A stretch of DNA of 64,000 nucleotides from Stegostoma tigrinum (lineage: Eukaryota). The position numbers and the translations under genes were made by a program. Location: NCBI RefSeq assembly GCF_030684315.1, contig NC_081365.1, positions 35,491,394-35,555,393 of the forward strand, written 5' to 3'. Numbering within the stretch: position 1 is the first letter of the stretch; every line of letters begins with the position of its first letter. Shown here piece after piece: positions 1 through 47,500 of the stretch. The notes below the pieces were generated by a model. The model was not told the origin of the DNA, did no database searches, and worked only from the letters and a program-made list of their open reading frames with translations.

Positions 1-264
1 CCGTATGCCATCGTCTCAGTGGTGTTGATGAAATCTCGTGTCACTGGCATCTGTGAGCTGCTGGATTTCCACAGCCTTATCAATCTAACATTTGTTTTTG
101 AGCCTCCTTACCCACTTCTGCACATCAGCTTTGCTTTGGCATAGGCACTTGTTTTGGCCTTGCAGTAATGTTAATCTGCCAGTCACAGAAGGCTGTCCTT
201 TTTCCAGAGATGAGCTGTTCAATTTTACCACCATTCTCATCAAACAGTCCGGATGGTTTCCAGA

Positions 265-551
265 GATAGCAGGAACTGCCAATGCTGGAGAATCTGAGAT
301 AACACGCTGTGAAGCTGGATGAACACAACGGGCCAAGCAGCATCAGAGGAGTAGGAAAGCTTGACGTTTCGGGTCGGGACCCTTCTTCAGAAATGGGGGA
401 GAGGAAGGGGATTCTGGAATAAATAGGGAGACAGGAGGAGGCGGATAGAAGATGGATAAAAGTAGAAGATAGGGTGAGAGGAGACAGACAGGTAAAAGAG
501 GCGGGGTTAGAGCCAGTGAAGGTGAATGTAGGTGGGGAGTTGGGGGGGATA
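265..551 (-). mobile_element. Penelope-like element 3' fragment with hammerhead core
   Basis: Homologous to the 3' end of the PLE at 44290-44648. Minus strand 363-390 reads CTGAAGA-AGGGTCCCGACCC-GAAACGTC. TSD ggatggtttc(c/t)aga at 251-264 and 552-565. Confidence 0.85.
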
Positions 552-1235
552 GGATGGTTTCTAGACTTGTATTGGAGGGCGTTAGAGCAGGTACTGAGAA
601 TGGTTGATTTTAGCAGACTTCAGTATTCTCCTATGTCCTCTGGGTATTCCCAAGATAGAGTTTTAGTAAGTGAGGTCAGTAGATGTCACATAGTAACCAT
701 GTCACCTAGGGTCTTGATGTTGAACCTTGACTGAGTCTGCTTCTTCTGAACCCTCCTCTTTTGGTGTAGTCTGATGGACATTGTAGAACAGATAAGGTGG
801 TGATCAGTCTAGCAGCCATCTGAGCCGATCATAGCTTTGGTGACATTCATGTCCCGAAGGTCCTTGCAGCAAAGAATGACATGCTCAGTAAGGTGCCATT
901 GTTTTGAGTTGGGTACTTCCAAGATGCTTTGAATTTGTTTTTCTGATAGAAGAGTGTGTTTGTGTAGGTGAGGTTGTATTCAGTGCATTTTGTGAGAAAA
1001 AGGACTCCATTGGATTTGAAATTGCCAATACCTTCCTTTCCAATGGTGCCATTCTAATGGTTGTGGCCCCACCAACACTGGCATTGAAGTCTCCCGGAAG
1101 AATTATCTTCTGCTCCTTCGGGGTGCTTGTTGTCAGTATGTTAAGATTGGCATAGAAAATCTTCCTTACTTCCTCTTCTGGGTCAAGGGTTATGGCTTAA
1201 GTACTCACAACTATAGCCATCAGATTAGAACATAC

Positions 1236-1541
1236 GGCATGGTGGCTCAATGGTTAGCGCTGCAGCCTCACAGTGCCAGGGACCTGGGTTCAATCCAGCC
1301 TTGTGCGACTCTGTGTGGAGTTTGCGCATTCTCCCCGTGTCTGCGTGGGTTTCCTCCGGGTGCTCTGGTTTCCTCCCACAGTCCAAAGATGTGCACGCTA
1401 GGTGGATCAGCCATGCCAAATTGCCCGTAGTGTTCAGGGGTGTGTGGGTTATGAGGGGATGGGTCTGGGTAGGATGGTTCAAGGGGTAGTGTGGACTTGT
1501 TGGGCCAAAGGGCCTGTTTCCACACTGTAGGGAACCTAATC
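1236..1541 (+). mobile_element. tRNA-derived V-SINE (HE1-like)
   Basis: A box TGGCTCAATGG, B box GGTTCAATCC, V-SINE core (GTGTGGAGTTTGC..TTCTCCCCGTGTCTGCGTGGGTTTCCTCCGGGTGCTC), CR1/HER1-like tail. 9-bp TSD agaacatac at 1227-1235 and 1542-1550. Confidence 0.9.
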
Positions 1542-1550
1542 AGAACATAC

Positions 1551-1845
1551 AGAACTGTACAGGCTCTTTGGCCCACGCTGTTGTGCTGAACTTTTATCCT
1601 AAACTTAAGGTCTATCTAACCTCCATCCCTATGCCTATCTAATTGCTGCTTAAATGCCCCTAATGAGGCTAACTCCACTACCCTCTCCAGCAATGCATTC
1701 CACACCCCTACCACTCTCTGAGCAAAAAACCCACCTCTGACGTCTCTCCTATATCTACCTCCACTCACTTTAAAACTATGCCCCTGCGTAATAGCTACCT
1801 CCAACCTAGGAAAAAGTCTGGCTGTTCATTCTATCTATACCTCTT
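1551..1845 (-). mobile_element. CR1/HER1 LINE 3' fragment
   Basis: ORF 1616-1804 (TQGHSFKVSGGRYRRDVRGGFFAQRVVGVWNAL) is the CR1 ORF2 C-terminus, followed by the CR1 3' UTR. Confidence 0.85.
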
Positions 1846-3774
1846 GTTGGTGAACATCAGACAGATGGTCAAACAATCCCACAGGAAGTTCAGAGAGGCA
1901 ACTGATGAGCTGGTTCTTAATTGTGAAAGAATTCTGGGCTCATCAGCTGGCTTTCCTTGTCAGAAGAAGGAATAACCACCTTTTACCTTCTTCAGTTGCC
2001 CTTTGTCTGTAAAGGTGGGTTTCAGAAAGACTAGCAAGATTGACCTGGCATTTCTTTAGTTCTCTGGCTATGATTACAGTTCTTCTCTCAGTTCAGTCAT
2101 TGTTAGCTGGGTCCATCAGGGTTCTTACATTCCAGGCTCCAAAGTTTATTATTCTTTACTTCTGACCACATATGGGTGATTCCTCCGGATGTGGTAATTC
2201 AATCATGCGTTTTCAGGCAGACTATTTTTAGGGCATCTTTTCCAGCCCTTTACTGAGGTGAGCACAGCAGATCTTAAACAGGACCTGTTTTGAGGAAGGG
2301 TTACTAGATCTGAAACATTCCAATTTCTCTCCACAGATGCTGCCAGATCTGTGTTTTTCCAGCAATTTCTGCTGCTCAGTCGTGGGCACAGTTGTTGAAA
2401 TGCTCTACCTGCTTCATCCAGAGCAAGACAACTGAATCTGACACCCAAACCTAATGTGTCAGTTTGTGATTAGGGACTTGCAGATTTCACAATCCTGCGC
2501 CCCCCTCCGCTGCTAGCTGATCACCATAGGACTATTGTCTGGGATGTAAATAGAACTGGTGCCTCTTGGGAGGATGCCTGTGGGTGGTATTTTTTTAACA
2601 TGGGGAAGCTGGTGTACAGACAACCACCACATGAACTTTGGCAGATAAGGGTCAAACCCAGTGGCATGGAGACCAAGGTGATTGACAGCCGTTTCTGTTG
2701 TAGCTTACATTTATTTGCCTTCACAACCATTGTGGTGCAGTAATTTAAGTTCAGCTATCAGCCTCTGCCTGATTCACTGCTGAAGTCTTCATGAACCGCG
2801 TTTTGTTGGGAACCTACCCCTTGATCTGACTGTCACGGGTAACCCTTCAGGAGCTACTTTCCAGAAGGTTTAGCTTTCGGGTTCCTAGGCATACACAAGG
2901 CTCTCCACCGTCACCACCCCCCACCCCCCAAAAACAAGGTGTGATCCTTGGAGAGGTTATGTAATAATATTATGTAATAACTACTGTCAAACCATCTATC
3001 CTTCCCTGCAAAAAATAATTTCAGGTTGAGTCATATTCAAGAATATTAATGTTGCAGATTTTTAAACAAAAGTTTAATTTTTTCTGCTTCTGTTTTTCCA
3101 TTAACCCTGTATCTTTGTACAAGAAGCAAAATAATTATTCAAAATGTATTTTATATTCACTAATTTTGTGTCAAATGAAGATTCTTCAACAGATTTGTTG
3201 AATACTCTTTCTTTGATTTCTCTGCTCACAGATGTGCTGAGATCAAGTAGATGTGGAGATTACTAGTAATCTCATTTGCTTTTATCTTGTGCTCTAAGAC
3301 AATTACCTGTACATTGAATACTGTCTGGACTATTGTTGGCTGTGGATATCTGCAATATACACTGTCCCTGAGGATGCTTGCTCCTTATCATTAACAAGGC
3401 TCTTCATCTGTAAACACTATTTACATCCGCACATAGGAAAAGAAAACTACAATTCATAAACTATGCTCATTCTAAGATGGTATCTCTTACTGATGCCACA
3501 GTCATATGTTCAATTGCATCGTGATATACATAAATCTCATCATACCACATCACTGACAAGCCTGCTAGAGGTCCACGGATGTGAAAGGTGCACAGTAAAA
3601 GTTGTTCCTTCACTGCTAACAGCAAAATCCATTTCATGGAATTTCTGAAGCAGAAAATCCTATTCTGTGATCTGCGTCACTGTCAAGCTAATTTATTTGT
3701 GTCAACTAGATGTTTTATAAATTTAGAACCTGCTATTGTAGAGGATGCTGTCACTTTTTGTGGCAATTTGTCAT

Positions 3775-5515
3775 CTTACCATATTATGTATTGACTCATC
3801 TGTGCATGGATGGCATCACCGGTTTCTACTCAGATCCGCTGTCAGTGCATAGACTCATGAGCATCTGTAACCTGTTTGAACTGGCTTTGGGAGCTAAGGT
3901 AAATCAAGGCAAGAATGACACCATTTTCTTTGGGAGCTGGGCCACTGATCCTTTTAGATCCTTCACTGTCAGATCAGATTATCTGAAGATGCTAGGTATA
4001 TGGTTTGGAGGGGCCCAGGGGCATGTGCCAAAACTTGGGAGGAGTGTATTGCCAAGGTGTGATGGAAACTAGAGCAGGTGGGAACACCCATTGAGGGTAA
4101 AAAGCTAGACATCCGGTGTGAGGCACTATTTTTCTTGTTGTATGTGGCACAGGTCTGGACTATTCCCCAAGCCTGTGTCATTGCAGTTACCCAAGTCGTC
4201 TTCCATTTCACCTGGAGATCAAAGATAGACCATGCCCAAAGCTCTGGAAAAACAGGGGAAGAATGTATCCAACTTGATCCCACCTTCATCCTAATGGCCA
4301 CCTTTGTGTGTGGCTGCAGCAAACTGTGTGCAGACCCTCAATTTGTAAACACTGAATTTCACTAAGTACTGAGGTTCTACCTGTTCCCCATGTTGCAAAT
4401 GATAGGTCTGGCCTCATTGCTGTGGAATTCTCCAAGTAATTGGACAACTCTGTTTTACCTGTTCCCCATGGAAAAAATCTGCAAAGGAAACATCTTTGAT
4501 CACAAGTCCATCAGATAGTGTTCATGTAGCATCCCAGACGCTGTGGGAAAAGGAAAGAGCTGATTGATTTGGATAGTTTCTTGAGCAGACAAGTCATTTG
4601 GCAGAATGCCTCCTCATCAGCACTTTCCAACAGCATCTAGATGACGCTTGGCTGGTGGTAATAAGGGACATTCTCCACCACCATACTGCCCTTGAAGCGG
4701 CTGTGGCAATGAGGAGGTACAAAAAAGCAGACAGTCACATCTCCTGGAATGTAGAAAGAGGTGTGAAGCGTGATGCAATGGTTTTTGTCAAGGTTCATTC
4801 TGAGTGATGAGAAATCTGCAACCTCAGGGTGCACAACAAGATCAATTTCAACTTTGCTTGGAAGACCATCAACTGAGTGAAAAATGCTCTTTGTTCTGCC
4901 TGAAACCTGATCTTCCTGTGCAAAGATAACAAAGTGTGAAGCTGGATGAACACAGCAGGCCAAGCAGCATCTCAGGAGCACAAAAGCTGATGTTTCAGGC
5001 CTAGACCCTTCATCAGAGCTCTGATGAAGGGTCTAGGCCCGAAACATCAGCTTTTGTGCTCCTGAGATGCTGCTTGGCCTGCTGTGTTCATCCAGCTCCA
5101 CACTTTGTTATCTTGGATTCTCCAGCATCTGCAGTTCCCATTATCTTTTCCAGTGCAAAGAGTTGAGTTTGACCGATTTGTTGTAGACCGGCACATTCCG
5201 AGGTCCAGGACTATGTGCTGAGGGACGCACTAACGCTTGGACCGTCTGTTGCGAAGGCATGTTGGGAAAAGACCACCCAAGGTCTTTCTGTCAAATTTAA
5301 ATGGGGGTTCATTCAGTTATCAGACCCTCTCATTGCCTTGAACATATGTAAATAGTGTCCTGCATGAATAAGAATACCTTTGACATTTGCAACCGCAGGG
5401 AACATCAGATCCAATGCTTGTTTATCTTAATATGCAAAGACTGTACAAAACTGCTTTAGTACCTGTGTACAAAGACATTTTTTGAAGTGACTAAACATAT
5501 TTTTGCAATAAAAAT
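3775..5515 (+). mobile_element. Decayed Tx1/L1-clade LINE, RT C-terminal part and 3' end
   Basis: LCMDGITGF.SDPLSVHRLMSICNLFELALGAKVN..LKMLGIWFGG resembles the Tx1/L1 RT (YMDD-region derivative). Many stops; ends at AATAAAAA near 5508. Interrupted at 4926-5147. Confidence 0.7.
4926..5147. mobile_element. Palindromic PLE-derived mini-element with two head-to-head hammerhead cores
   Basis: Inverted repeat with 96-bp arms 4923-5018 and 5019-5114 (about 2 mismatches, no spacer), plus a 33-nt tail on the right. TSD ttcc(t/a)gtgcaaag at 4913-4925 and 5148-5160. Confidence 0.9.
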
Positions 5516-5863: not shown

Positions 5864-6440
5864 GATAATGGGAACTGCAGATGCTGGAGAATCCAAGATA
5901 ATAAAATGTGAGGCTGGATGAACACAGCAGGCCCAGCAGCATCTCAAGAGCACAAAAGCTGACGTTTCGGGCCTAGACCCTTCTTCAGAGAGGGTGAGGG
6001 TTCTGGAATAAATAGGGAGAGTTCGTCCCCTCCCCCCACTGCACCACACAACCAGCCCAGCTCTTCCCCTCCACCCACTGCATCCCAAAACCAGTCCAAC
6101 CCGTCTCTGCCTCCCTAATCTGTTCTTCCTCTCACCCATCCCTTCCTCCCACCCCAAGCCGCACCTCCATCTCCTACTTACTAACCTCGTCCCACCTCCT
6201 TGGCCTGTCCGTCTTCCCTGGACTGGCCTATCCCCTCCCTACCTCCCCACCTGTGCTCTCCTCTCCACCTGTCGTCTTTTCTCTCCATCTTTGGTCCACT
6301 TCCCCCTCTCTCCCTATTTATTCCAGAACCCTCACCCCATCCCCCACTCTGATGAAGGGTCTAGGCCCGAAACATCAGCTTTTGTGCTGCTGAGATGCTG
6401 CTGGGCCTGCTGTGTTCATCCAGCCTCACATTTTATTATC
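5864..6440. mobile_element. Tail-outward inverted PLE 3'-end element
   Basis: 5864-about 6020 is the PLE 3' end in minus orientation (core 5961-5988). About 6021-6440 is the same 3' end in plus orientation (core 6349-6376). 15-bp TSD ttaacctgggtgagt at 5849-5863 and 6441-6455. Confidence 0.9.
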
Positions 6441-8176
6441 TTAACCTGGGTGAGTTTGGGTTTGGCTAAGAGCTTAGATGTTAAAGCTTGAAATGCCAAA
6501 ACACACTGTCTCACTAAAATTTGGGGGCCAACTAGCTGAACACACAGTAGTGGGGTGGGGGTGGGGGGGAATCCAACTCATTTCCAGGCGCTGGATTGCT
6601 ACTTAAACATGCTAATGAGGTTAAAAGCTTCAGGTTTAATTGTGGGGTATGGGTTTCCATACACTGGGAATTCCAGCAAGACATGAAAGCCTCAGAAAGG
6701 CAAGTGCCTCCAGTGTGTACACTGTGCACATGTGCATGGAGAGGGAGAAGGAAGGAGAGAGAGAAAGAGATCAGAACTGTTTTATCTACACAACCCCAAT
6801 ATCTCCAGACAAAATCATACTTTGGGTTGGACTCTTTTGGATCCTCCTGGATCAGATCCTTTCCCTAGTGTCAGAATGAGGCACCTCTGGAATTGCAAGA
6901 CTACTTGGGATCAGGACTTTGACTCTCTGCACGAGTTGATGACTGGATGGCTTAGTCCTGCGGCATCATCCAGGATTTTCACTGCCCAGCAGAAAGCGAG
7001 CCTTTTGATCAATTAATTACTTTCCAGTGGAGAATCTGTTTGGGTCAAATGTTACATCAAATCCAGATTTGGATTTTCTCATGAGCTATTGGACTTCTCC
7101 AGCAAGTAAAAGTTTCCTCCAGTACTTCAGCTTAGAGACTTGACAATGAAAGCTTAGGTCAAATTTGTGTCCTCGCTTTCCAACAATTGTTAGCAGTATA
7201 AAGTTTTAATACGGTTATGATTTTGGACTCTTTAAGGTAAAATGGAAGGAGGAAGAAGTTCGTATGACCTGGTCAGAATGCTGAACAATTCAGTGGCTTG
7301 GGTTGCTGTGGAGATGAAAGGGTCCCTAAGTCAAGAGGTTTGTTGAGGAGGTACTAGATATTCATATCCATTGTAGAAAAGCAAGAGCAGCTGTGCTGAC
7401 TGAGGAGGCTGTTCATCTCCAAGTCTCACATGGCAGTGTTAGGAATATTAGGCCTTAAATGGTTAATTTAAAATCTGTTTAATTTCAAGTTAGAATGCGG
7501 TTGAGGTCTAGAAGATAGCTAATTGTCAATTCGCCCTGCATATGTCTGGCATGATTCAAATTGTCACAGAAATGACTTTGAGAGGGCAAGAGTCCGCAGA
7601 AAGTCATTGTAGGATTGTTCTTAACATAACACATCACTGAACTGCTCAGACCAAAGTCGGTCTGCAAAAAACAGAGTAAGAGGGGATAGCAGGAATATAG
7701 CGTTGGCTATCCTGTACCTGAAGCAGAGAAAAATGATGATTCTCCTGTTCATTATACAATGCAGGTGGGAGCTTTCATTCTGATCGAAAAGAATGCATTC
7801 GTGAGAATTTAAAAGGAGAATGGAAGATTTACTTAGGGGCAGTTAAGAGTCAACCACATTACTGTGGGTCTGGAGTCACATGTAGGCCTAACCAGGTAAG
7901 GACAGCAGATTTCCTTTCTTAAACAAAAAGGACATTGGTGACCCAATACAGTCTTATGACAATTGACAATAGTTATGTGGTCACCGTTGTGCTAGTTGTT
8001 TTGATACTATAGATAGTGAAATTTGAATTTTGTCAATCTATAGTAAGGGATTTGAATCAATGTCTCCAGATCATTAGCCTGGGTTCTGAATTCCCATTTC
8101 CACAATGCCATCACCTCTCCCTTTTACTTAGTCCGTTTAATGCAAAGGCGAAAGTTCTTTAAACAAGTGTTTTTAC

Positions 8177-27730: not shown

Positions 27731-28061
27731 CTCTGACTGCACCAATCAGGCTTTGACCTGGTAATAGAGGCTGCCCTTAACTTACTTTGCTGGGAACCCA
27801 TGAGCAAAGGGCTAACTTGACTGAAACCTGCTGACAACAAGCTTCCTGACTTATGTCTGCACAGAATGGCAAAGCAAGACAGTAGCAGTATGAGCCTAGT
27901 ATCTCTGACTGAGGAGGCAAAGCATGAAAAGGGAAGATGAGGCAGGGATGTAATTAGCATTTAGGTCAGAGGCAGTGTTGTGCTATGGCAAATGAGTGAA
28001 GTGCCCAGCAATCTGGCCTAGTCCAGTCCAATGCAAAGTGTCCTTGCTGCAGTATTACAGC

Positions 28062-30325
28062 ATTTCAACTTTCCAAACTGGGAACACTATAGTTCGAGTA
28101 CTATAGATGGATCAGTTTTTGTCCAGTGTGTGCAGGAGGGCTTCCTGACACAGTATGTAGATAGGCCAACAAGGGGCGAAGCCACATTAGATTTGGTACT
28201 GGGTAATGAGCCTGGCCAGGTGTTAGATTTGGAAGTAGGTGAGCACTTTGGTGATAGCGATCACAATACTGTTATGTTTACTTTAGTGACGGAAAGGGAT
28301 AGGTGTATACCACTGGGCAAGAGTTATAGCTGGGGGAAAGGCAATTACGATGGGATTAGTCAAGATTTAGGGACCATAGGATGGAGAATGAAACTGCAGG
28401 GGATGGGCACATTAGAAATGTGGAGCCTATTCAAGGAAAAGCTCCTGTGTGTCCAAGATAAGTATGTACCTGTCAGGCAGGGAGGAAGCTGTAGAGCGTG
28501 GGAGCCGTGGTTTACGAAGGAAGTGGAATCTCTGGTCAAGAGGAAGAAGGCGGTTTATGTTAGGATGAGATGTGAAAGCTCAGTTAGGGCGCTTGAGGGC
28601 TATGAGGTAGCCAGGAAAGACCTAAAGAGAGGAGATAGGGGAAGCACTAAATGAATATTTTTCGACAGTATGTACTCTAGAAAATGACAATGTTGTCGAG
28701 GAGAATACCGAGATACAGACTACTAGACGAGGTGGGATTGAGGTTCACAAGGAAGAGGTATTAGAAATCCTACAGAGGGTGATGATAGATTAGTCTCCTG
28801 GGCCGGATGGGATTTATCCTAGGATCCTCTGGGAAGTCAGGGAGGAGATTGCTGAGCCTTTGGCATTGATCTTTAACTCGTCACTGTCTACAGGAATAGT
28901 GCCAGATGACTGGAGGATAGCAAATGTGGTTCCCCTGTTCAAGAAGGGGAGTAGAGACAACCCTGGTAACTATAGGCCAGTGAGCCTTACCTCAGTTGCT
29001 GGTAAAGTGTTGGAAAAGGTTATAAGGGATAGGATTTATAATCATCTAGAAAAGAATAAATTGATTAGGGATAGTCAGCACGGTTTTGTGAAGGGTAGGT
29101 CGTGCCTCACAAACCTTATTGAGTTCTTTGAGAAGGTGACCAAACAGGTAGATGAGAGTAATGTGGTGTATATGGATTTCAGCAAGGCGTTCGATAAGGT
29201 TCCCCACAGTAGGCTATTGTACAAAATGGGGAGGAATGGGATTGTGGGAGATATAGCAGTTTGGATCGGAAATTGGGTTGCTGAAAGAAGACAGAGGGTG
29301 GTAGTTGATGGGAAATGTTCATCCTGGAGACCAGTTACTAATGGTGTACCGCAAGGGTCAGTGTTGGGTCCACTGCTGTTTGTCATTTTTATAAATGACC
29401 TGGATAAGGGCGTAGAAGGATGGGTTAATAAATTTGCAGACGACACTAAGGTCGGTGGAGTTGTGGATAGTGACGAAGGATGCTGTAGGTTGCAGACAGT
29501 CATAGATAAGCTGCAGAGCTGGGCTGAGAGGTGGCAAATGGAGTTTAATGCACACAAGTGTGAAGTGATGCTCTTTGGTAGGAGTAACCGGAAGGCAAAG
29601 TACTGGGCTAATGGTAAGATTCTTGGTAGTGTAGATGAGCAGAGAGATCTCGGTGTCCATGTACACAGATCCTTGAAAGTTGCCACCCAGGTTGACAGGG
29701 CTGTTAAGAAGGCATACAGTGTTTTAGCTTTTATTAATAGAGGGATCGAGTTCCAGAACCAAGAGGTTATGCTGCAGCTGTACAAAACTCTGGTGCGGCC
29801 GCACTTGGAGTATTGTGTACAGTTCTGGTCACTGCATTATAAGAAGGATGTGGAAGCTTTGGAAAGGGTGCAGAGGAAATTTACTAGGATGTTGCCTGGT
29901 ATGGAGGGGAGGTCTTACGAGGAAAGGCTGAGGGTCTTGAGGCTGTTTTTATTAGAGAGAAGGTTGAGAGGTGACTTAATTGAGACATAGAAAATAATCA
30001 GAGGGTTAGATAGGGTGGATAGGGAGAGCCTTTTTCCTAGGATGGTGATGGCGAGCACGAGGGGGCATAGCTTTAAATTGAGGTTGTGAAAGATATAGGA
30101 CAGATGTCAGAGGTAGTTTCTTTACTCAGAGAGTAGTAAGGGTATGGAATGCTTTGCCTGCGACGGTAGTAGATTCGCCAACTTTAGGTACATTTAAGTC
30201 ATCATTGGACAAGCATATGGACATACATGGAATAGTGTAGGTTAAATGGGCTTCAGATCGGTATGACAGGTTGGCACAACATGGAGGGCCGAAGGGCCTG
30301 TACTGTGCTGTAATGTTCTATATGT
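28062..30325 (+). mobile_element. CR1/HER1 LINE, 5'-truncated, with long open RT
   Basis: ORF 28031-28654 (EN C-terminus: LDLVLGNE..FGDSDHN) and ORF 28860-29990 (376 aa RT: NYRPVSLTS, DFSKAFDKV, GVPQGSVLGP, FADD). 3' tail GGGCCTGTACTGTGCTGTAATGTTCTAT. Confidence 0.96.
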
Positions 30326-30494: not shown

Positions 30495-31917
30495 TAAAAA
30501 CCAAAAGAACTGCGGATGCTGTGAATTAGGACCAAAAACAGAAGTTACTGCAACAACAGTTCTGAGGAAAGGTCATTGCACCTGAAACGTTAACACTGTC
30601 TTTTCCTTCGCAGATGCAGCCAGATCTGCTGAGCTTTTCCAGCAACTTTATTTTTGTTCCTGATTTACAACATGCGCAGTTCTTTTTTCAGTTTTAACAG
30701 AAGTTGCTGGACGAGCTCAGCAGGTCTGGCAGCATGTGTGAAGAAAAAATCAAAGTCAATGTTTCATTTCCAGTGGCCCTTCCTCAGAACTGATGTTGTC
30801 TGGGAAAACCTTGGTTTAATATGCAGAAATAGGGAGGGGGATGGGGTACAGCCTCCAAAATGTCCACCTTCTTCCTCAACTGAGGATTCCCAGTACCATT
30901 GTCAACAGGGTCTTCAACCAGATCTGACCCATTGCCTGCAATTCTGTTCTCACCCCTTCTCTTCCTGCCCACAACAGCAATAGGGTTCGCCTTGTCCTTA
31001 CCTACCATCCTACCAGCGTCCACATCCAGAAGATCATCAGACCCCATTTCCACGAGCGAGGTGCCACTACCAGACACACGTTCTCCTCCCCTCTCCTGTC
31101 TGCCATTCGCAGGGACTGTTCCCTATAGGAGACCTAGGTCCCCTCTTCCTTCACCCCCAGTACAGCGCCACAGCTCTATGGCACCTTCTGCTGTAACCAG
31201 TGAAGGTGTAACACCTGCCCATTTACTTTCTCCCTCCTCACTATCCAAGGGTCCAAATATATCTTCCAGGTGAAGCAGTACTTTACCTTTACTTCCCAGA
31301 ATCAAGTCTACTGCATTTGCTGCTCACAATATTGTCTCCTCTACATTAGGAAAATGAACCATAGGTTGTCTGATTGCTTTGCAGAACATCTGCTTGTTCT
31401 CCTTGCAAAAAAGACCCTGAGGGACCTGTTGCCTGCTGCTTTAACACACCACCCTGTTCCCTGGCCAATATCATTGTCTCTGGCTTGCTGCAGTGTTTCA
31501 GTGAAGCCCAAGACAAGTTGGAAGAACAACACCTCATCTTCTGCTTGGGGACCCTGCAACTCTCTTAACTCAATATCGAGTACAATAATTTTTGGGCCTA
31601 ACTCTCGCTTGTCCTAGCCCCTACTCCACATAGCCTGCCATTACACTCTACCTATTGTTAGTCACTATTAACAACTATTACCCAGATTGTTATCAACTCC
31701 TTTGTCTATCCAACTGCTCTTCTCTCTCTTCTGGCTCAATCCTATCATTTACTCCTTACCCCATCCCCTTCCCTGTTTTCTGCATAGAAATTGATGTTTT
31801 CCCAGCTGCCATCAGTTCTGAGGAAGAGTAACAGGTACATTAACTTTGATTTTTTTTTTCTTCACAGATGTTGCCAGACCTGCTCAGCTTTTCCAGCAAC
31901 TTCTGTTTTTGTTCCTA
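30495..31917. mobile_element. Cluster of second-family PLE pieces, including decayed RT-thumb/GIY-YIG with inverted ends
   Basis: The plus strand from about 30852 encodes a broken PLE C-terminus (KMSTFFLN*GFP..LVLTYHPTS; FTFTSQNQVYCICCSQYCLLYI..RLSDCFAEHL). CTGAGGA..GAAACGTT core near 30562. A minus-orientation 3' end lies at about 30697-30850. Confidence 0.8.
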
Positions 31918-32062
31918 AAAACTTGCTGGCTGTTTTCCAACATGGTTGTTCAGAGTAAGTGGTGAGCTGAAATCACCAGGTACTCGCTCTGGTGTTGTTG
32001 TTAAGTTCTCCTGATGTTGAGCTTGTTTGGTAAGATGGGAAACTGAATGTTAATAAGGTGAG

Positions 32063-32656
32063 ATAACAAGGTGTAGAGCTGGATGAACACAACAGCATCA
32101 GAGGAGCAGGAAAGCTGACGTTTTGGTTTGAGACCCTTTTTCAGAAATGGGGCAGGGGAAGGGGATTCTGAAATAAATAGGCAGAGAGGGGGAGACGGAT
32201 AGAAGATGGATAAAAGGAGAAGATAGGGTGAGAGGAGACAGACAGGTCAAAGAGTCAAGGTTGGAGCCAGTAAAGGTGAATAAAAGTAGGGAGTTAGGGA
32301 GGGGATAGGTTGATCCAGGGAGGATGGACAGGTCAAGGAGGCAGGATGAGTTTAGTAAGTGGGAGATGGGGTCCGGCTCCCTAACTCCCCACCTACACTC
32401 ACCTTTACTGGCTCCACCCCCACTTCTTTGACCTGTCTCCCCTCCACCTATCTTCTTTATCTGTCTTCTATCCACCTATCTCTCTCTCCCTATTTATTTC
32501 AGAATTCCCTTCCCCTCCCCCATTTCTGAAGAAGGATCTCGATCTGAAACGTCAGCCTTCCGGCTCCTCTGATGCTGCTTGGCCCGCTGTGTTCATCCAG
32601 CTCTACAGTTTGTTATCTCAGATTCGCCAGCATTGGCTATTCCTACTCTCTCTGTA
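32063..32656. mobile_element. Tail-outward inverted PLE 3'-end element
   Basis: Left part is minus, right part is plus orientation of the same 3' end; core CTGAAGA..GAAACGTC at about 32526-32553. 13-bp TSD ttaataaggtgag at 32050-32062 and 32657-32669. Confidence 0.85.
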
Positions 32657-40132: not shown

Positions 40133-41876
40133 CAATAAACCTCCAAAGAACTGCTGGAGACTGGATAAAAGAAGGTCCAGAAAGTTTTCAGGTTTTATGT
40201 TGGTGGGCCTTCTGGATGAGTTTAAAAAAAAAATTCCAGGCCTATTATTGATACTCATTTTAACATGACGACTTGCATTCAGGCAGATTTGGAAGGGCAT
40301 AAGGAAGTATTATTTTGCCAATGGTACAGCCTGTTTTGGATGCAAGTCAAATTTCTAGGCACCAAAAATTGTTTAGCAGCTTAAGAAATTCTGTTCCTGC
40401 TTCTTGGTGCCAAGGGCTGTTTGGGATTTATGACTATTTTGTCAAGTATAATAATTCAGTTTTTTTAGTTTGGATGTTCAGCGGTGGCTGGGGGAATACC
40501 ACATAAATACATTGTATTCAAACTGTGCCAAATTTCTTTCACTTGAATTATTAATTCCTGTAGGCCAAACAAAGAAGAAAACCGTGGAAGTATTTCTGTC
40601 TGGATCATCTTCTGGCACTTGTCCATGCCAGGAGTATAGAAAACAAAGTAAGTTACAACTGTAGCTATTCAAACAGCAAGTACTAATCATAACTGTTTTC
40701 CTTGTTTCCCTTTCCCTGGTATTGCCACAAAGTCAACCTTTAATATCTTAACCTTTTATATGAAACTCTTGGTAAAGCATGTGAGTAAGCTGGTCAACCA
40801 CACCATAGTTAAACCCAATCATCTCAGTCAACAACTATAAAAATGGATGTCTAGAAATTGATCTGGAATGGAACATTAGCTGAAACTTCTCTCCCTAGCA
40901 CATGGCTGCTCTAGTCATTTGTAGAACTTTTGGTGATATATCGTTGGGATTAAGGAAATAACTAGACTGAAAAGTAAACTGTGGATCTTTCTAGTCCAGA
41001 TGCTTAAACAACTTAATTTGTTAAGTCACAGGGGAGCTAAGAAGTGGTATTTAAATTAGAAGAGATAAAACTGAAGCAAATAGCTAGTGGCAACAGTTCT
41101 CTGTTTCCAAAACTACTATTAAGGAATGGGGAAAGAAAACGGAAGTCATCCATTCAAGACATTAATATATTGAAGACAATTAGAAAGGAAAATTCTTAAA
41201 CACAAACTTTCAATGACCTATCCATTTAGTTGCAGAAAATAAACTAGTCGTAAAATGTAGTAATGACCATTTTAAGCTTAAAATTCAAATGTAAATACAT
41301 GATATAGCTTTGCAAGGCCTCAAGCCTTTTGAATCTTTCATCGCATTAACCATAGGTAGAAGAATTTAACTTTCTTCATTTGGTATTTAGTATAAATGAA
41401 AGCCTGGATTGTGAAACATTTTCTGACTCTTTTGTCAAGATCAGCATGGAGAGGGATGATAGCTACAATGTCTCAAACAAATGTAAAGCTGACCAAAAAG
41501 TGGACAAAAAGTGTTTTTGTGTTATCTATGCTTTAAATGCTACTCAAAATTTCACACGTTTCAAAACCAATTTAACAACATTAGACACTCTTTATTGGCT
41601 AAAATAGCTACTGAAGAGTGCTGTAAGTCCAAAAGGGCTAGTTGATGTGCAGGTGAACCTCTGCTTAATGTGGAATGTCATCTTGGGGCCTGCGATAGGG
41701 GTGATGGAGGAGGTGTGGGGGCAAGTGTAGCATTTCCTGCGGTTTCAGGGGAAGGTGCCGGGTGTGGTGGGGTTGGAGGGCAGTGTGGAGCGAACAAGGG
41801 AGTCACGGAGAGAGTGGTCTCTCCGGAAAGCATACAGGGGTGGGGATGGAAAAATGTCTTGGGTGGTGGGGTCGGA

Positions 41877-43814
41877 TTATAGATGGCGGAAGTGTTGGAG
41901 GATGATGCGTTGTATCCGGAGGTTGGTAGGGTGGTTTGTGAGAACGAGGGGGATCCTCTTAGGGCGGTTGTGGCGGGGGCGGGGTGTGAGGGATGTGTTG
42001 CGGGAAATACGGGAGACGCGGTCAAGGGCGTTCTCGATCACTGTGGGGGGAAAGTTGCGGTCCTTAAAGAACTTGGACATCTGGGATGTGCGGGAGTGGA
42101 ATGTCTTATCGTGGGAGCAGATGCGGCGGAGGCGGAGGAATTGGGAATAGGGAATGGAATTTTTGCAGTAGGGTGGGTGGGAGGAGGTGTATTCTAGGTA
42201 GCTGTGGGAGTCGGTGGGCTTGAAATGGACATCAGTTACAAGCTGGTTGCCTGAGATGGAGACTGAGAGGTCCAGGAAGGTGAGGGATGTGCTGGAGATG
42301 GCCCAGGTGAACTGAAGGTTGGGGTGGAAGGTGTTGGTGAAGTGGATGAACTGTTTGAGCTCCTCTGGGGAGCAAGAGGCGGCGCCGATACAGTCATCAA
42401 TGTACCGGAGGAAGAGGTGGGGTTTGGGGCCTGTGTAGGTGCGGAAGAGGGACTGTTCCACGTAACCTACAAAGAGGCAGGCATAGCTGGGGCCCATGCG
42501 GGTGCCCATGGCCACCCCCTTAGTCTGTAGGAAGTGGGAGGAATTGAAAGAGAAGTTGTTGAGGGTGAGGACGAGTTCAGCTAGGCGGATGAGAGTGTCG
42601 GTGGAGGGGGACTGGTCGGGCCTGCGGGACAGGAAGAAGCGGAGGGCCTTGAGGCCATCTGCATGCGGAATGCAGGTGTATAGGGACTGGACGTCCATGG
42701 TGAATATGAGGTGTTGGGGGCCAGGGAATTGGAAGTCCTGGAGGAGGTGGAGGGCGTGGGTGGTGTCACGGACGTAGGTGGGGAGTTCCTGGACCAAAGG
42801 GGAGAAAATGGAGTCCAGATAGGTGGAGATGAGTTCGGTGGGGCAGGAGCAGGCTGAGACGATGGGTTGACCAGGGCAGGCAGGTTTGTGGATTTTGGGA
42901 AGGAGATAGAAACGGGCCGTGTGGGGTTGGGGAACAATGAGGTTGGAGGCTGTGGGTGGGAGGTCCCCTGACGTGATGAGGTCGTGAATGGTGTTGGAGA
43001 TGATGGTTTGGTGCTCCGGTGTGGGGTCATGATCGAGGGGGCGGTAGGAGGTGGTGTCGGAGAGTTGGCGTCTGGCCTCGGCGATGTAGAGGTCAGTGCG
43101 CCATACTACCACTGCGCCACCCTTGTCTGCGGGTTTGATGGTGAGGTTGGGGTTGGAGCGGAGGGAGCGGAGGGCTGCCCGTTCTGCGGGGGAGAGGTTG
43201 GAGTGGGTGAGAGGGGTGGAGAGGTTGAGGCGGTTAATGTCTCGACGGCAGTTGGAGATGAAGAGGTCGATGGAGGGTAGGAGGCCTGGGGGTGGTGTCC
43301 AGGAGGAGGACTTGTGTTGGAAGCGGGTGAAGGGGTCAGTGGAAGGACGGTTAGGTTCCCCGTTGAAGAAGTAGGCGTGGAGGCGAAGACGGCGGAAAAA
43401 CTGCTCTATGTCCAACCGTGACAGGTATTCGTTGATGTGTGGTTGTAGGGGGACAAAGGTGAGCCCCTTACTAAGGACTGACCGTTCGTCCTCAGTCAGT
43501 GGGAGGTCTGGGGGGATGGTGAAGATGCGGCAGGGTTCAGTGTGGCTGTCTTCTCTGGGGTTGCTGGCTGTGGAGGTTGTGGGCGGAGCGATGAAGTCGT
43601 CGGCCGTGGGCGGGGTTCCGTCGGCCGTGGGCGGTGTTCCGCCGGCGGTTGGAGTATCGGGGTGGGCGGCAGCAGCTGCGGTGAGGGTGGTGTGTGAGGT
43701 GTTGTACCTGGAAGTGGAGGTGGTGACTGCAGCAGCGGTTCCGGAAGTTCTGTGGCCGGCGGAGGCGGATGTGACGTCATCCGTGGGGTCTCGGGCCGTG
43801 TCCTCATGGTCCAT
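41877..43814 (-). CDS. PLE reverse transcriptase ORF (645 aa, ended by a premature stop)
   Basis: PLE RT motifs: LSKGLTFVP, IKPADKGGAVVV, FYLLPKIHK, MDVQSLYT, QTKGVAMGT..P, RYIDD, LTFLD, KPTDSHSYL. The frame continues past TAA 41877 and TGA 41745 to FTCTS at about 41644. Confidence 0.93.
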   Translation of the reverse strand: MDHEDTARDPTDDVTSASAGHRTSGTAAAVTTSTSRYNTSHTTLTAAAAAHPDTPTAGGTPPTADGTPPTADDFIAPPTTSTASNPREDSHTEPCRIFTIPPDLPLTEDERSVLSKGLTFVPLQPHINEYLSRLDIEQFFRRLRLHAYFFNGEPNRPSTDPFTRFQHKSSSWTPPPGLLPSIDLFISNCRRDINRLNLSTPLTHSNLSPAERAALRSLRSNPNLTIKPADKGGAVVVWRTDLYIAEARRQLSDTTSYRPLDHDPTPEHQTIISNTIHDLITSGDLPPTASNLIVPQPHTARFYLLPKIHKPACPGQPIVSACSCPTELISTYLDSIFSPLVQELPTYVRDTTHALHLLQDFQFPGPQHLIFTMDVQSLYTCIPHADGLKALRFFLSRRPDQSPSTDTLIRLAELVLTLNNFSFNSSHFLQTKGVAMGTRMGPSYACLFVGYVEQSLFRTYTGPKPHLFLRYIDDCIGAASCSPEELKQFIHFTNTFHPNLQFTWAISSTSLTFLDLSVSISGNQLVTDVHFKPTDSHSYLEYTSSHPPYCKNSIPYSQFLRLRRICSHDKTFHSRTSQMSKFFKDRNFPPTVIENALDRVSRISRNTSLTPRPRHNRPKRIPLVLTNHPTNLRIQRIILQHFRHL

Positions 43815-43860
43815 GGTGGCGGGTGCATGGTGGGGGAGGGGCAGGGACAGAGTTGGGATT

Positions 43861-44297
43861 CATCTGCCAATGTGGTATACTGCATCCACTGTACCCGGTG
43901 TGGCTTCCTCCACATTGGGGAAACCAAGCGGAGGCTTGGAGACCGCTTTGCAGAACACCTCCGCTCAGTTCGCAACAAACAACTGCACCTCCCAGTCGCA
44001 AACCATTTCCACTCCCCCTCCCATTCTCTAGATGACATGTCCATCATGGGCCTCCTGCAGTGCCACAATGATGCCACCCAAAGGTTGCAGGAACAGCAAC
44101 TCATATTCCGCCTGGGAACCCTGCAGCCTAATGGTATCAATGTGGACTTCACCAGTTTCAAAATCTCCCCTTCCCCCACTGCATCCCTAAACCAGCCCAG
44201 TTCGTCCCCTCCCCCCACTGCACCACACAACCAGCCCAGCTCTTCCCCCCCACCCACTGCATCCCAATACCAGTCCAACCTGTCTCTGCCTCCCTAA
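43861..44297 (+). CDS. PLE GIY-YIG endonuclease domain (inverted relative to RT)
   Basis: SANVVYCIHCTRCGFLHIGETKRRLGDRFAEH..PVANHF..EQQLIFRLGTLQPNGIN, a PLE GIY-YIG with the CCHH motif. Confidence 0.9.
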
Positions 44298-44521
44298 CCG
44301 GTTCTTCCTCTCACCCATCCCTTCCTCCCACCCCAAGCCGCACCCCCATCTACCTACTAACCTCATCCCACCTCCTTGACCTGTCCGTCTTCCCTGGACT
44401 GACCTATCCCCTCCCTACCTCCCCACCTATACTCTCTCCACCTATCTTCTTTACTCTCCATCTTCGGTCCGCCTCCCCCTCTCTCCCTATTTATTCCAGT
44501 TCCCTCTCCCCATCCCCCTCT

Positions 44522-44549
44522 CTGATGAAGGGTCTAGGCCCGAAACGTC
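44522..44549 (+). ncRNA. Minimal type I hammerhead ribozyme core in the PLE 3' terminus
   Basis: CUGAUGA-A-GGGUC(UA)GGCCC-GAAAC-GUC. Stem II hairpin and minimal palindromic stem III (ACGU) as described for PLE hammerheads. Stem I pairing is weak in this copy. Confidence 0.75.
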
Positions 44550-47500
44550 GGCTTTTGTGCTCCTGGGATGCTGCTTGGCCTGCTGTGTTCATCCAGCCTC
44601 ACATTTTGTTATCTTGGAATTCTCCAGCATCTGCAGTTCCCATTATCCCCAAAAGGGCTAGTACTGTGATGTATCATAAGCACCATCTGCATAGTACTGT
44701 TGTATGAGTTTGTGGGCAAAACAGTTTAGGATCACAAAGGAATGAGAGCTAAAATCTAGACTTTCTCAAATTTTCTGTAACTATGTCAAACATATCGATG
44801 TAACTTGTAACTACATGCTAACGTATGATAAACTGTATTTTGGCAACAGTAAGAGACTCTTCTGGTTAGACCAGGCAGTAGTTTTCCTTTGCCAAATTAG
44901 ATCAAACAGGGACTGTAGTTTTCTACAGTTAAAAGAAGATGGTGGCAGCAACTTTATTCATGAACAGCAGCTCATGCAATGTAATGAGCTGACATCCCAC
45001 ACAACAAAGTTACTTGACTACGAGAAGTATCTTTGGCTAGTATTCTTAGATACCACCTGTAATAAATTAGGATTCAAACAATTAAACAAAGGTTTGTTCT
45101 ATTTTATATTCTGGAGTTTAAGTCTCCTGTAAAATATTATCACATTACAAAATATTTTTGTATTGTACTTACATTTGATATCCAGTGGGATATGGTAAAT
45201 TTTTTCAAGCAAATATGGTGCACATCTTGACAACGCATTTTAGTGAAAATATCCTTTTAGAAGTATTTATAAATCCTAAAATTTGATATAAGTGCTTCTT
45301 GATTATAGAAATTAGGATGCAAACTACCTATCGAATGAAATAGCAAATACTGAAACAGAAAATTTCTTTTGGTTAATGGTTGCAAAATCTACCTACAATA
45401 CTACAAAAATAATAATGCATCTCAGAAGACACCAGTCACATTCATACTCTGTATGTATGATAAAAGAGTAAAATGTAGAATAATAAATAGGGGCTAAGCT
45501 ACCAGTAAAGCTTCTGGAGTAACAATATATCTGATTCAATTATTAAGAATAATCACCCTTTGAGAGGACAGCACTGTCTCACATCTCTAAGAATGGAGCA
45601 GAGAAAGATAAAGCAGAGATTACAGTTTGTTAGGAGTATTTTTGTATGTTTTTCAGAATTTGTATTTTTCCTTGCAAAGGTGTAAAAGAAAGCAAAAATA
45701 CATAGTGGCATTTATTACTTACCTTTTTGAATTCAGAGAATTCATCTTAGTTAGTAACACTTTAATGGAATCATCACCATAGTCCCCTGATACAACTTAT
45801 TCACATTGTGATTATTTTCAAATGTAATTCAGTGACATCTTGTGAATATGAAAAGAACTATTGTATACAAGTGCAAGCTCTTGCCTCAACATCCCTGCAG
45901 ATATATTTTAATTTTGGTCAAATTAACATTTCAATTGGTATTACATGATGAGTGAATCCGAGATGGAACTATCAATTACAAATGTAATTGGAATACAGAA
46001 TTAGCCTGCAAATTATTGAATTTTGCAATATTTATGGTCTTTGGAATTCATGAATATTAGTACATTAATTTTTCACAAGGTATCTTTTTGACCGCAATAT
46101 TTGACATTATTTTACCATCATTTTTCTCTAAAATTAAATTTTGTGCAAGGAAAAGTCACTTAAATCTCAAAGTACAACATATGAATTTTTCACTGTTAGT
46201 TTTAATAGAACTTTCACAAAAAATGATATTCCTCTGGGGCAATCTAATGAAATGAATTGTTAACCAATTACTTAATTTTACTTCCATTGTCCTCTATTAA
46301 AATAATATTGAAATTTTGACCTATTAATCAACTGATGTTTGCAGTTAAACAGAATTCAGGTCCTGCAGAAATACAACATGACATCTCATGGAGCTGAATT
46401 TTATGCTGGTGACAGAGTATCTACCCCTGCCATTTAACTGTGGTGACCATGATTGGGTTTACAGATGGAATCTCAGGCAAATGAGCTGACATTAGAACTG
46501 TGTGAATGCAAGTTTGGGATCTTGTCTGTGGGGTAGCCCCAGTGAGGGGTGTAGGAGGTAATGATGGGCAGTAAGAAAGAGGTAATACAGGGATGTGAGG
46601 AGTGAAACATCAATGTGCAGAGGGAGCCTGAAAAAGCAGCAATATCCATGCTCTTCCAAGTTTACCTGATAAGCTGGGCACTTGGTCCCTGTCTCCTCTA
46701 TACACTCAATGGCGCTGGGAGCCCCTTGATGAGCCAATTATTGGGAATAGCAATGCTGAAATGTTACATAATTTTATGACATCCCTGACTGCTATTCTAA
46801 TTCAGGAGGACAGTAAAATTCTGTTCATGAAATTTGGTTTTAACATAATAATGACTACACTGTTTAAGAGTTATATTATCAGTCTCACTGGTAGTTTAAG
46901 TATTTGATCAATCATACTTATCTATGCTATTAAGTAATACCAATCATTACTTCCATTTAAAATACTCTGGTGCATCATAGAGTACTTGGAATTTATACCT
47001 TTATTTTTAAATTGATTAACACAACTAAGGATTTCATCTGATTTTTCTCAGCAAGAATGACTTTTCCCAAGATGATAAATTTTCAGCTTAAAGCACAGAT
47101 CCAAATAACTGGGAAAGAAAAAGTCTCACAAAGAAAACCATGGTAGAGAATTATATTGATGAGCAAAGTTCTGAAAAGTACTATTTTGTATATAGGGATG
47201 AGTTTCATTGGCAGAATTCCATTTGACACATCATTTGGTGGCAGCAGAAAAAATTGACTTAAAACCGTTGTTAGACTATTGATTTGGATTTTGATTGGAG
47301 TTATTTTATTTGAATAAGGCGAAGAAAGAATTTTCACTGGTATTATAACCTCCATATTCTGCATTAACTGCACAAACTAAGCAGGATCACATATCGGGCA
47401 TGCAATACCTGATGGCCAGATCATCTGTGCTGTAACTAGATGGCTAAATCATCTGTGTTAGGAGTCATATTGTTTCCAGTTGGTGGTTCCTATTTGATAG

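Follow-up and report, generated by a model that had tools for sequence, protein, structure and literature searches.

Abutting inverted and sense arms of a Penelope-like element within one target-site duplication: probable twin priming outside L1

Introduction

The 5' inversion of L1 elements by twin priming was reportedly described by Ostertag and Kazazian in 2001. In L1, twin priming yields the flank followed by an inverted upstream part and a downstream part in sense orientation (PMC2912911; PMC4245944; like the other papers below, these are cited for the sections available). The two parts are separated by gaps or overlaps with medians of 14.5 and 22 bp, respectively, and the second copy may also switch to RNA that has not yet been copied (10.1101/2024.08.27.596794). 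Microhomology is often, but not always, found at the inner junction in L1. 5' inversions have been obtained nearly only with human L1 in human cells (PMC4245944).

Penelope-like elements are known to leave target-site duplications (TSDs) and to carry inverted arms (PMC3846280; PMC8557442). The classic insertion of an EN+ element consists of an inverted 5'-truncated copy or a pseudo-LTR, plus a tail of 30-40 bp (PMC3846280; PMC8557442). The origin of the head-to-head insertions is stated to be open in PMC8557442 and is ascribed to self-priming in PMC3846280. The Poseidon protein of Anolis carolinensis, which is predicted to form a dimer, cuts both target strands, extends them and initiates within the RNA, at a site that needed no homology to the target in vitro (PMC11167929). 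A literature search, whose scope lay outside the older key reviews, recovered no paper that applies twin priming to Penelope-like elements, and papers that contain both terms do not link them in the sections available. Here, we describe an inverted Penelope-like insertion in a window of 64,000 nucleotides, the window being the whole stretch of DNA that was analysed.

Results

Structure and identity of the insertion

The window contains a 5'-truncated Penelope-like element of 3.0 kb with a reverse transcriptase (RT), a linker cysteine motif and a GIY-YIG endonuclease, located between two copies of a 14-bp target duplication (Table 1). Between the duplications, a single T is followed by the antisense arm and then by the sense arm (43861-44648). 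A previous sequence-only reading of this locus had proposed a perfect 14-bp TSD, a left flank that joins the element in antisense at FTCTS and runs through the RT, a sense strand that resumes at SANVVYC with a 4-nt CATC overlap and continues to the 3' tail, and only two stops. This layout was recovered with two small corrections at the outer ends, as described below. The antisense arm is a single frame of 739 codons that ends with ..KQRFTCTS and contains two stops and zero frameshifts, while the sense arm opens with CATCTGCC at 43861, translated as SANVVYC...

Table 1. Features of the insertion, head-to-head pairs elsewhere in the window, and metagenome loci with abutting arms. Positions are those of the window, except for L072 and L057, where the ranges refer to these loci.
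Feature	Position	Strand	Remarks
Left 14-bp target-site duplication	41629-41642	+	exact twin at 44649-44662; single copy at the empty site (X13 record 9)
Outer junction TGATGT	41643-41648	+	one non-element base, then five that fit the element
Inverted arm, 2,217 nt	41644-43860	-	low-complexity N-terminal part, RT, thumb, linker cysteine motif, end FTCTS
In-frame stop, codon 705	41745-41747	-	falls on the first cysteine position of the linker motif
In-frame stop, codon 661	41877-41879	-	frame reading
Middle (head-to-head) junction	43860-43864	.	CATC at 43861-43864 also present, reversed, at 41644-41647
GIY-YIG endonuclease and ORF end, 144 codons, open	43863-44297	+	PF01541, E 0.018; likeness to protein P0104
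Pyrimidine-rich 3' untranslated region	44298-44519	+	92% identity with the copy at 6020-6442
Minimal hammerhead-like motif of the pseudo-LTR (CTGATGA, short stem, GAAA, palindromic ACGT)	44522-44549	+	by eye
Tail of about 33 nt between the two 3' ends of the family	44615-44647	+	loose ends of contigs; ends of window copies
Right target-site duplication	44649-44662	+	X1 record 8 and X2 record 23 span 44626-45700 with zero differences
Right flank ACTG-TGATGT	44663-44672	+	duplication would be 24 bp if the left copy lost ACTG
Head-to-head pair	4923-5145		exact flanking repeat of 9 nt; perfect palindromic centre at 5018/5019
Head-to-head pair	5864-6442		exact flanking repeat of 15 nt
Head-to-head pair	about 32061-32656		exact flanking repeat of 13 nt
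L022, 6-nt gap between arms			6 references; non-element DNA outside the arm
L052, 22-nt overlap			7 of 8 references within 19-22; non-element DNA outside the arm
L072, 6-nt overlap	418-2406		further inverted 3' pieces outside the arm
L057, 2-nt overlap	181-1687		further inverted 3' pieces outside the arm

Pfam searches identified RVT_1 (PF00078) in the inverted arm with an E-value of 9.8e-7 and 29.1 bits, just below the cut-off of 29.6, and GIY-YIG (PF01541) in the sense arm, also below its cut-off. Both domains were found in several contiguous homologs. The inverted arm is 77% identical to a Chiloscyllium protein and the sense arm is 93% identical to the Rhincodon protein P0104 over the first 100 residues, with Chiloscyllium, Stegostoma, Rhincodon and Mobula providing the nearest named proteins among the matches listed. 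These matches point to a carpet shark as the most probable host.

The organization is that of EN+ Penelope-like elements, with one ORF that encodes an RT followed by a C-terminal GIY-YIG. The CCHH zinc finger by which this group is defined (PMC8557442), with two cysteines between GIY and YIG, was recognized in VVY-CIHCTRC-GFL-HIG, followed by two histidines, and C361, C364 and H383 are near-invariant in alignment A1. The linker between RT and endonuclease contains the additional Zn-finger-like cysteine motif of Neptune (or Nematis), which is present in 87 of 120 homologs and of which the first cysteine is a stop in the window copy. By this motif, the element would be of Neptune type, the motif being common to Neptune and Nematis and thus not separating the two. 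Also as in EN+ elements, there is a pseudo-LTR with a minimal hammerhead-like motif, which resembles the hammerheads of Penelope-like elements (PMC4209133), and a tail in the range of 30-40 bp; the core motifs were identified by eye and the tail from the two 3' ends of the family. Rfam searches at the gathering score gave no matches across the 64-kb window, and none of four folded 3'-end pieces was better than its shuffles (z from -0.20 to 1.13). Three degenerate 39-nt repeats are located at the ORF end (44166-44294).

The two arms are contiguous parts of one element

Two queries, taken from the end of the antisense arm (110 residues) and from the beginning of the sense arm (100 residues), were searched separately against the 120 homologs listed, 91 of which were matched by both. 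The offset between the halves was zero in 89 of these, and the remaining two were off by -1 and -54. The halves are thus contiguous in the family, without which the sequence-only reading of an inversion would fail.

Short-read contigs from organism A, represented by X1 and X2, which are two sample codes of one study and one of which may be the source of the window, were in agreement. Contigs of colinear copies have the joints 41644>43865 and 41648>43861, on opposite strands, with four letters that fit both sides (8 + 9 contigs in X1 and 9 + 5 in X2). Since these contigs join the halves on opposite strands with four shared letters, the halves are colinear in other copies, with CATC as the overlap. 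In the listed rows of all four runs, the loose ends preceding 43861 give a consensus that matches the arm's outer end in reverse complement. The middle junction itself was not among the contig pieces listed. Six other antisense-to-sense joints in X1/X2 (41817>44144, 41878>44069, 41991>43941, 42152>43860, 42158>44457 and 42461>44462) were seen in one contig per run each, with 24-43 letters on the short side, and were not counted; they may represent inner junctions of other inverted shark copies.

No microhomology was found between the two inner ends, with GATT versus TGCA on one side and, on the other side, X9 record 30, for which the match ends at 43860 with 85 letters left over. Moreover, the N-terminal 165 residues of six full-length homologs gave no match in the window. 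Because the X9 contig match ends at 43860 and the conserved N-terminal part has no counterpart in the window, this position corresponds to the 5' truncation, which the sequence-only reading had placed at about the same point.

Target duplication, outer junctions and empty site

The 64 kb contain exactly two occurrences of CCAAAAGGGCTAGT, at the two ends of the insertion, and none on the other strand; the chance of such an exact pair abutting both ends is about 4e-7. The T at 41643 is an extra base between the left duplication and the antisense arm. Other window copies end with ..CCCATTATC (= 44647), one base before the 3.0-kb copy, and base 44648 is therefore also extra.

The motif TGATGT that follows the left duplication (41643-41648) reappears 4 nt past the right duplication (44667-44672), for which the chance is 0.2-0.5%, as estimated post hoc. 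There is no microhomology directly at the end of the 14-bp duplication, and 5 nt if TGATGT is derived from the target. In the latter case, five bases would pair with the RNA at the breakpoint, accounting for both the 4-nt overlap and the additional T. The duplication would then have measured either 24 bp, 4 nt of which were lost, or 14 bp followed by a templated addition. We slightly favour the reading that TGATGT is target-derived and a candidate priming microhomology.

These junctions bear on the possibility that the insertion formed without annealing, by an RNA break or an RT template switch after which the second target end or host end-joining captured the upstream piece in reversed orientation. 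Such a process would fit the extra single bases at both outer junctions, the lack of microhomology at the 14-bp boundary and the middle junction, and the homology-free starts of the Poseidon protein in vitro (PMC11167929). However, the 4-nt overlap (about 1 in 256 for 4 nt) and the TGATGT match in the flank would then be due to chance, whereas annealing explains both. Fold-back self-priming (PMC3846280) alone cannot give the layout of the window copy because it yields overlapping palindromes rather than abutting arms, and the broken-RNA version would still amount to priming from both target strands. We consider an insertion without annealing unlikely.

Contigs of X1 and X2 span 40600-41672 and 44626-45700 with zero differences, that is 30 and 23 letters into the element, which falls under the bridging rule of 31 letters for contigs. 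The flank is joined directly to the antisense element in both samples of organism A. In organism E, a related species, a 4,480-nt contig (X13 record 9) covers 40600-41625 and 44649-45700 with one copy of the target and no element. This empty site, which the sequence-only reading had called for, is represented by one contig of one run, in which 7 letters are found left of the target where 3 are expected (41626-41628), and the flanks differ from the window at 60 + 71 positions (131 in about 2,080 letters). As expected for a product of twin priming, the insertion is a single event at a formerly empty target; it arose after the split from organism E and is present in both samples of organism A.

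A later, unrelated inversion in an ordinary 5'-truncated copy, or an assembly error, would be compatible with the middle junction not being seen in the contig pieces listed and with the high abundance of the family, which accounts for more than 400,000 contigs per run of organism A. Yet one breakpoint would have to hit the 5' edge of the insertion exactly, the antisense left junction was recovered in two short-read runs with zero differences, and the same geometry is seen at other loci (L022, L052, L072 and L057, in metagenome contigs; see below), making such an origin highly improbable.

Age and coding state of the window copy

The RT part has an observed/expected CpG ratio of 0.69, whereas the flanks have 0.12-0.18 and a CR1-like copy of the window has 0.36, in line with the high CpG content noted from the sequence alone. 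The suggestion of a recently active family holds loosely: the insertion postdates the split from organism E, but at 17 of the 40 positions listed the window copy differs from more than 90% of the family depth in X1, corresponding to at least 17 private changes. These include one stop and the change of YIG to HIG in the nuclease motif. The window copy is a dead copy of moderate age. Given these changes and the missing conserved N-terminal domain, the suggestion that the protein can be largely reconstructed is supported only in part.

No Pfam matches were obtained for 61 stop-to-stop frames (of 90 listed) outside the element in the region 33000-54000, a set assembled without the frames that overlap the element and three pseudo-LTR frames, and no host gene was found near the element. 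The region 28022-29990 (+) contains two long open frames (210 and 398 codons), which we take to be a fragment of a CR1-like LINE, and an older and more diverged Penelope-like fragment with thumb, linker and nuclease is located at 30886-31592 (+), with about 45% identity to P0104.

The usual head-to-head form of the family

The pseudo-LTR end is also matched at nine other loci of the window, and three of these are head-to-head pairs (Table 1). In all three pairs, one arm runs into the tail and the other stops about 33 nt earlier, and in those at 4923-5145 and 5864-6442 each arm is closest to its partner (92/94 and 90/94). In each of these three classic inverted copies, 2-4 nt are common to the target and the start of the short arm. 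In organism A, loose ends behind 44614, which is the internal 3' end, were seen in about 1,000 contigs of each run, and the ends of the window copies fall at the equivalents of 44613-44616 or 44647. The three pairs are the inverted pseudo-LTR plus tail described previously (PMC3846280; PMC8557442), since their arms overlap and start at the fixed internal 3' end of the family. The sequence-only reading had taken priming on both strands to explain these inverted mini-elements; second-strand priming can do so, but other models can as well.

In the copies at 5019, 27162, 49853 and 59021, the match starts 1-2 nt ahead of the CTGATGA hammerhead core rather than at the presumed cut site, which may point to a fixed 5' end of the RNA there. 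In addition, 43 contigs in X1 and 40 in X2 join the internal 3' end to the reversed tail end (44611/44647) in a tail-to-tail manner, suggesting tandem inverted units or insertion into the end of the element itself.

Abutting arms recur in metagenome contigs

A scan of metagenome contigs with alignment A1, with seeds located in the RT, gave 266 confirmed stretches, the best 80 of which were kept. Protein matches on both strands were found in 18 of the best 80 of 266 loci, and the arms abut within 22 nt in four of the same 80 (Table 1). The offsets of the arms were measured against colinear loci as DNA references, ignoring rows in which the reference is itself rearranged (L022, L057, L072). The contigs of L022, L052 and L057 end before the 3' end of the ORF, and that of L072 just after. 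Under a rough null, a count of four out of seven loci within 25 nt has a probability of 6e-6, the seven being the analyst's choice.

In L057 and L072, the inverted arms are composite: they begin at the 3' end of the element and then jump exactly to the start of the sense arm, and the duplicated parts in L072 are 96.8% identical. This fits a second copy that started at the 3' end and switched to uncopied RNA, as for L1, and also fits a later deletion in a long inverted repeat. Overlapping arms were observed in L017, L044, L045, L046, L059, L061 and L070.

The other two-strand loci were ambiguous or dropped from the count of abutting arms. The arms of L067 (744-2906) match two different loci (L038, L021) at more than 99% each with a gap of about 125 nt, which could reflect either a single event with two templates or a chimeric contig; metagenome assemblies may be chimeric and L067 is a possible case. 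The inverted piece of L074 is 28% identical and belongs to another element, L065 has a 178-nt overlap at 84%, L068 a large gap, L016 and L025 an arm cut by the contig end, and L075 another geometry.

Overlapping arms are the common form, being present in three of the nine other pseudo-LTR loci in the window and, among the 18 metagenome loci with matches on both strands, in at least 7. This could be taken to mean that the window copy also began as a classic head-to-head insertion, with the second arm made from the 3' end of the element on a second RNA or by self-priming, and that the left arm then lost the duplicated part, so that only the unique loop was left. Long inverted repeats are unstable, and L057 and L072 resemble partial versions of such a process. 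On the other hand, no trace of the 3' end is present at the outer junction in the window copy, L022 or L052, and the loss would have had to affect one arm only, with its limits precisely at the target duplication and at the top of the stem. We find this origin improbable.

Discussion

Twin priming as the probable origin of the window copy

The insertion consists of an inverted 5' segment and a non-inverted 3' segment with abutting arms in one TSD, which is the signature described for L1 twin priming. The geometry thus fits what the sequence-only reading had proposed, and for the mechanism, which we infer, the best explanation is probably L1-like twin priming on one RNA in one retrotransposition event. 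That both cDNAs came from the same RNA molecule is deduced from the abutting arms only.

By such a mechanism, the nuclease would cut both target strands with a stagger. The first 3' end would prime at the tail end of the RNA and copy 788 nt, and the second 3' end would prime inside the same RNA where the first copy had reached, perhaps via 5 nt of pairing with the target-derived GATGT, and extend 2.2 kb further upstream, after which the two inner ends would be joined bluntly. Second priming of this kind would give the classic inverted pseudo-LTR when it begins at the family's fixed internal start, and the window copy when it begins at a chance internal site.

Twin priming is favoured by the zero offset of the halves in 89 of 91 homologs, taken together with the 4-nt DNA overlap, the empty site and the joint of flank and antisense element; by the recurrence of abutting arms in L022, L052, L072 and L057; by the 2-4 nt shared by target and short-arm start in all three classic window copies; and by the activity of the Poseidon protein on both strands and the gaps and overlaps of like size in L1. 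Several observations argue against it. The contigs listed leave the middle junction unspanned and reach 30 and 23 letters past the outer ones; neither the middle junction nor the end of the 14-bp duplication has microhomology, and the TGATGT reading needs a 4-nt loss or a templated addition; the inverted arm is 2.8 times as long as the sense arm, whereas in L1 the average is the other way round; the Poseidon protein started without target homology in vitro; and the empty site has 7 rather than 3 letters left of the target. Furthermore, the inverted 3' pieces in L057 and L072 could come from a later deletion in a long inverted repeat, metagenome contigs can be chimeric, and the four abutting loci end near or before the 3' end of the ORF.

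We tentatively suggest, at somewhat less than even probability for the proposal as a whole, that twin priming is the general source of inverted Penelope-like insertions across animals, with the second target end priming on the sense RNA. The start would usually be the fixed internal one, giving the classic inverted pseudo-LTR with a tail on one side only; it would sometimes be where the first copy had reached, as in the window copy, L022 and L052, and sometimes there would be a switch, as in L057 and L072. If this is true, antisense self-priming would be replaced as the explanation and twin priming would occur outside L1, in the sister group of telomerase, and if general it would be no peculiarity of L1. 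The footprint in the window hints at how Penelope-like elements make inverted insertions: abutting, non-overlapping arms in one target duplication separate the models, and any long-read assembly would allow such arms to be counted.

Comparison with known systems

The window copy shares with L1 twin-priming products the order of flank, inverted upstream part, sense downstream part and 3' end, a TSD of 10-20 bp, a small overlap at the inversion point and a 5' truncation. Unlike L1, the element is Penelope-like with a C-terminal GIY-YIG and no poly(A), its inverted arm is longer than the sense arm, and the inner junction is without microhomology. Like classic EN+ insertions, it is head-to-head, has a TSD, a tail at one end and a hammerhead-like pseudo-LTR; whereas the classic inverted arm repeats the 3' end, the arm in the window starts within the ORF, with no more than 4 nt in common with the sense arm.

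The closest precedent is the Pen3 pair in Adineta (PMC3846280), in which the N- and C-terminal halves of one Penelope-like ORF are opposed as in the window and which the authors argued to be real. That pair differs in that it is on detached contigs, has overlapping halves and is interpreted by self-priming, with no TSD or empty site in the section concerned. Poseidon resembles the window family in that its two RT start sites define the tail (PMC11167929), but belongs to the Penelope/Poseidon clade, and the available sections of that paper do not report inverted products or twin priming on one RNA. The staggered cuts and priming by both strands inferred in the sequence-only reading agree with the TSDs and with cutting and extension of both strands, and this part is not new because TSDs, inverted arms and both-strand cutting and extension in vitro were already in print; what is new is the type with abutting, non-overlapping arms.
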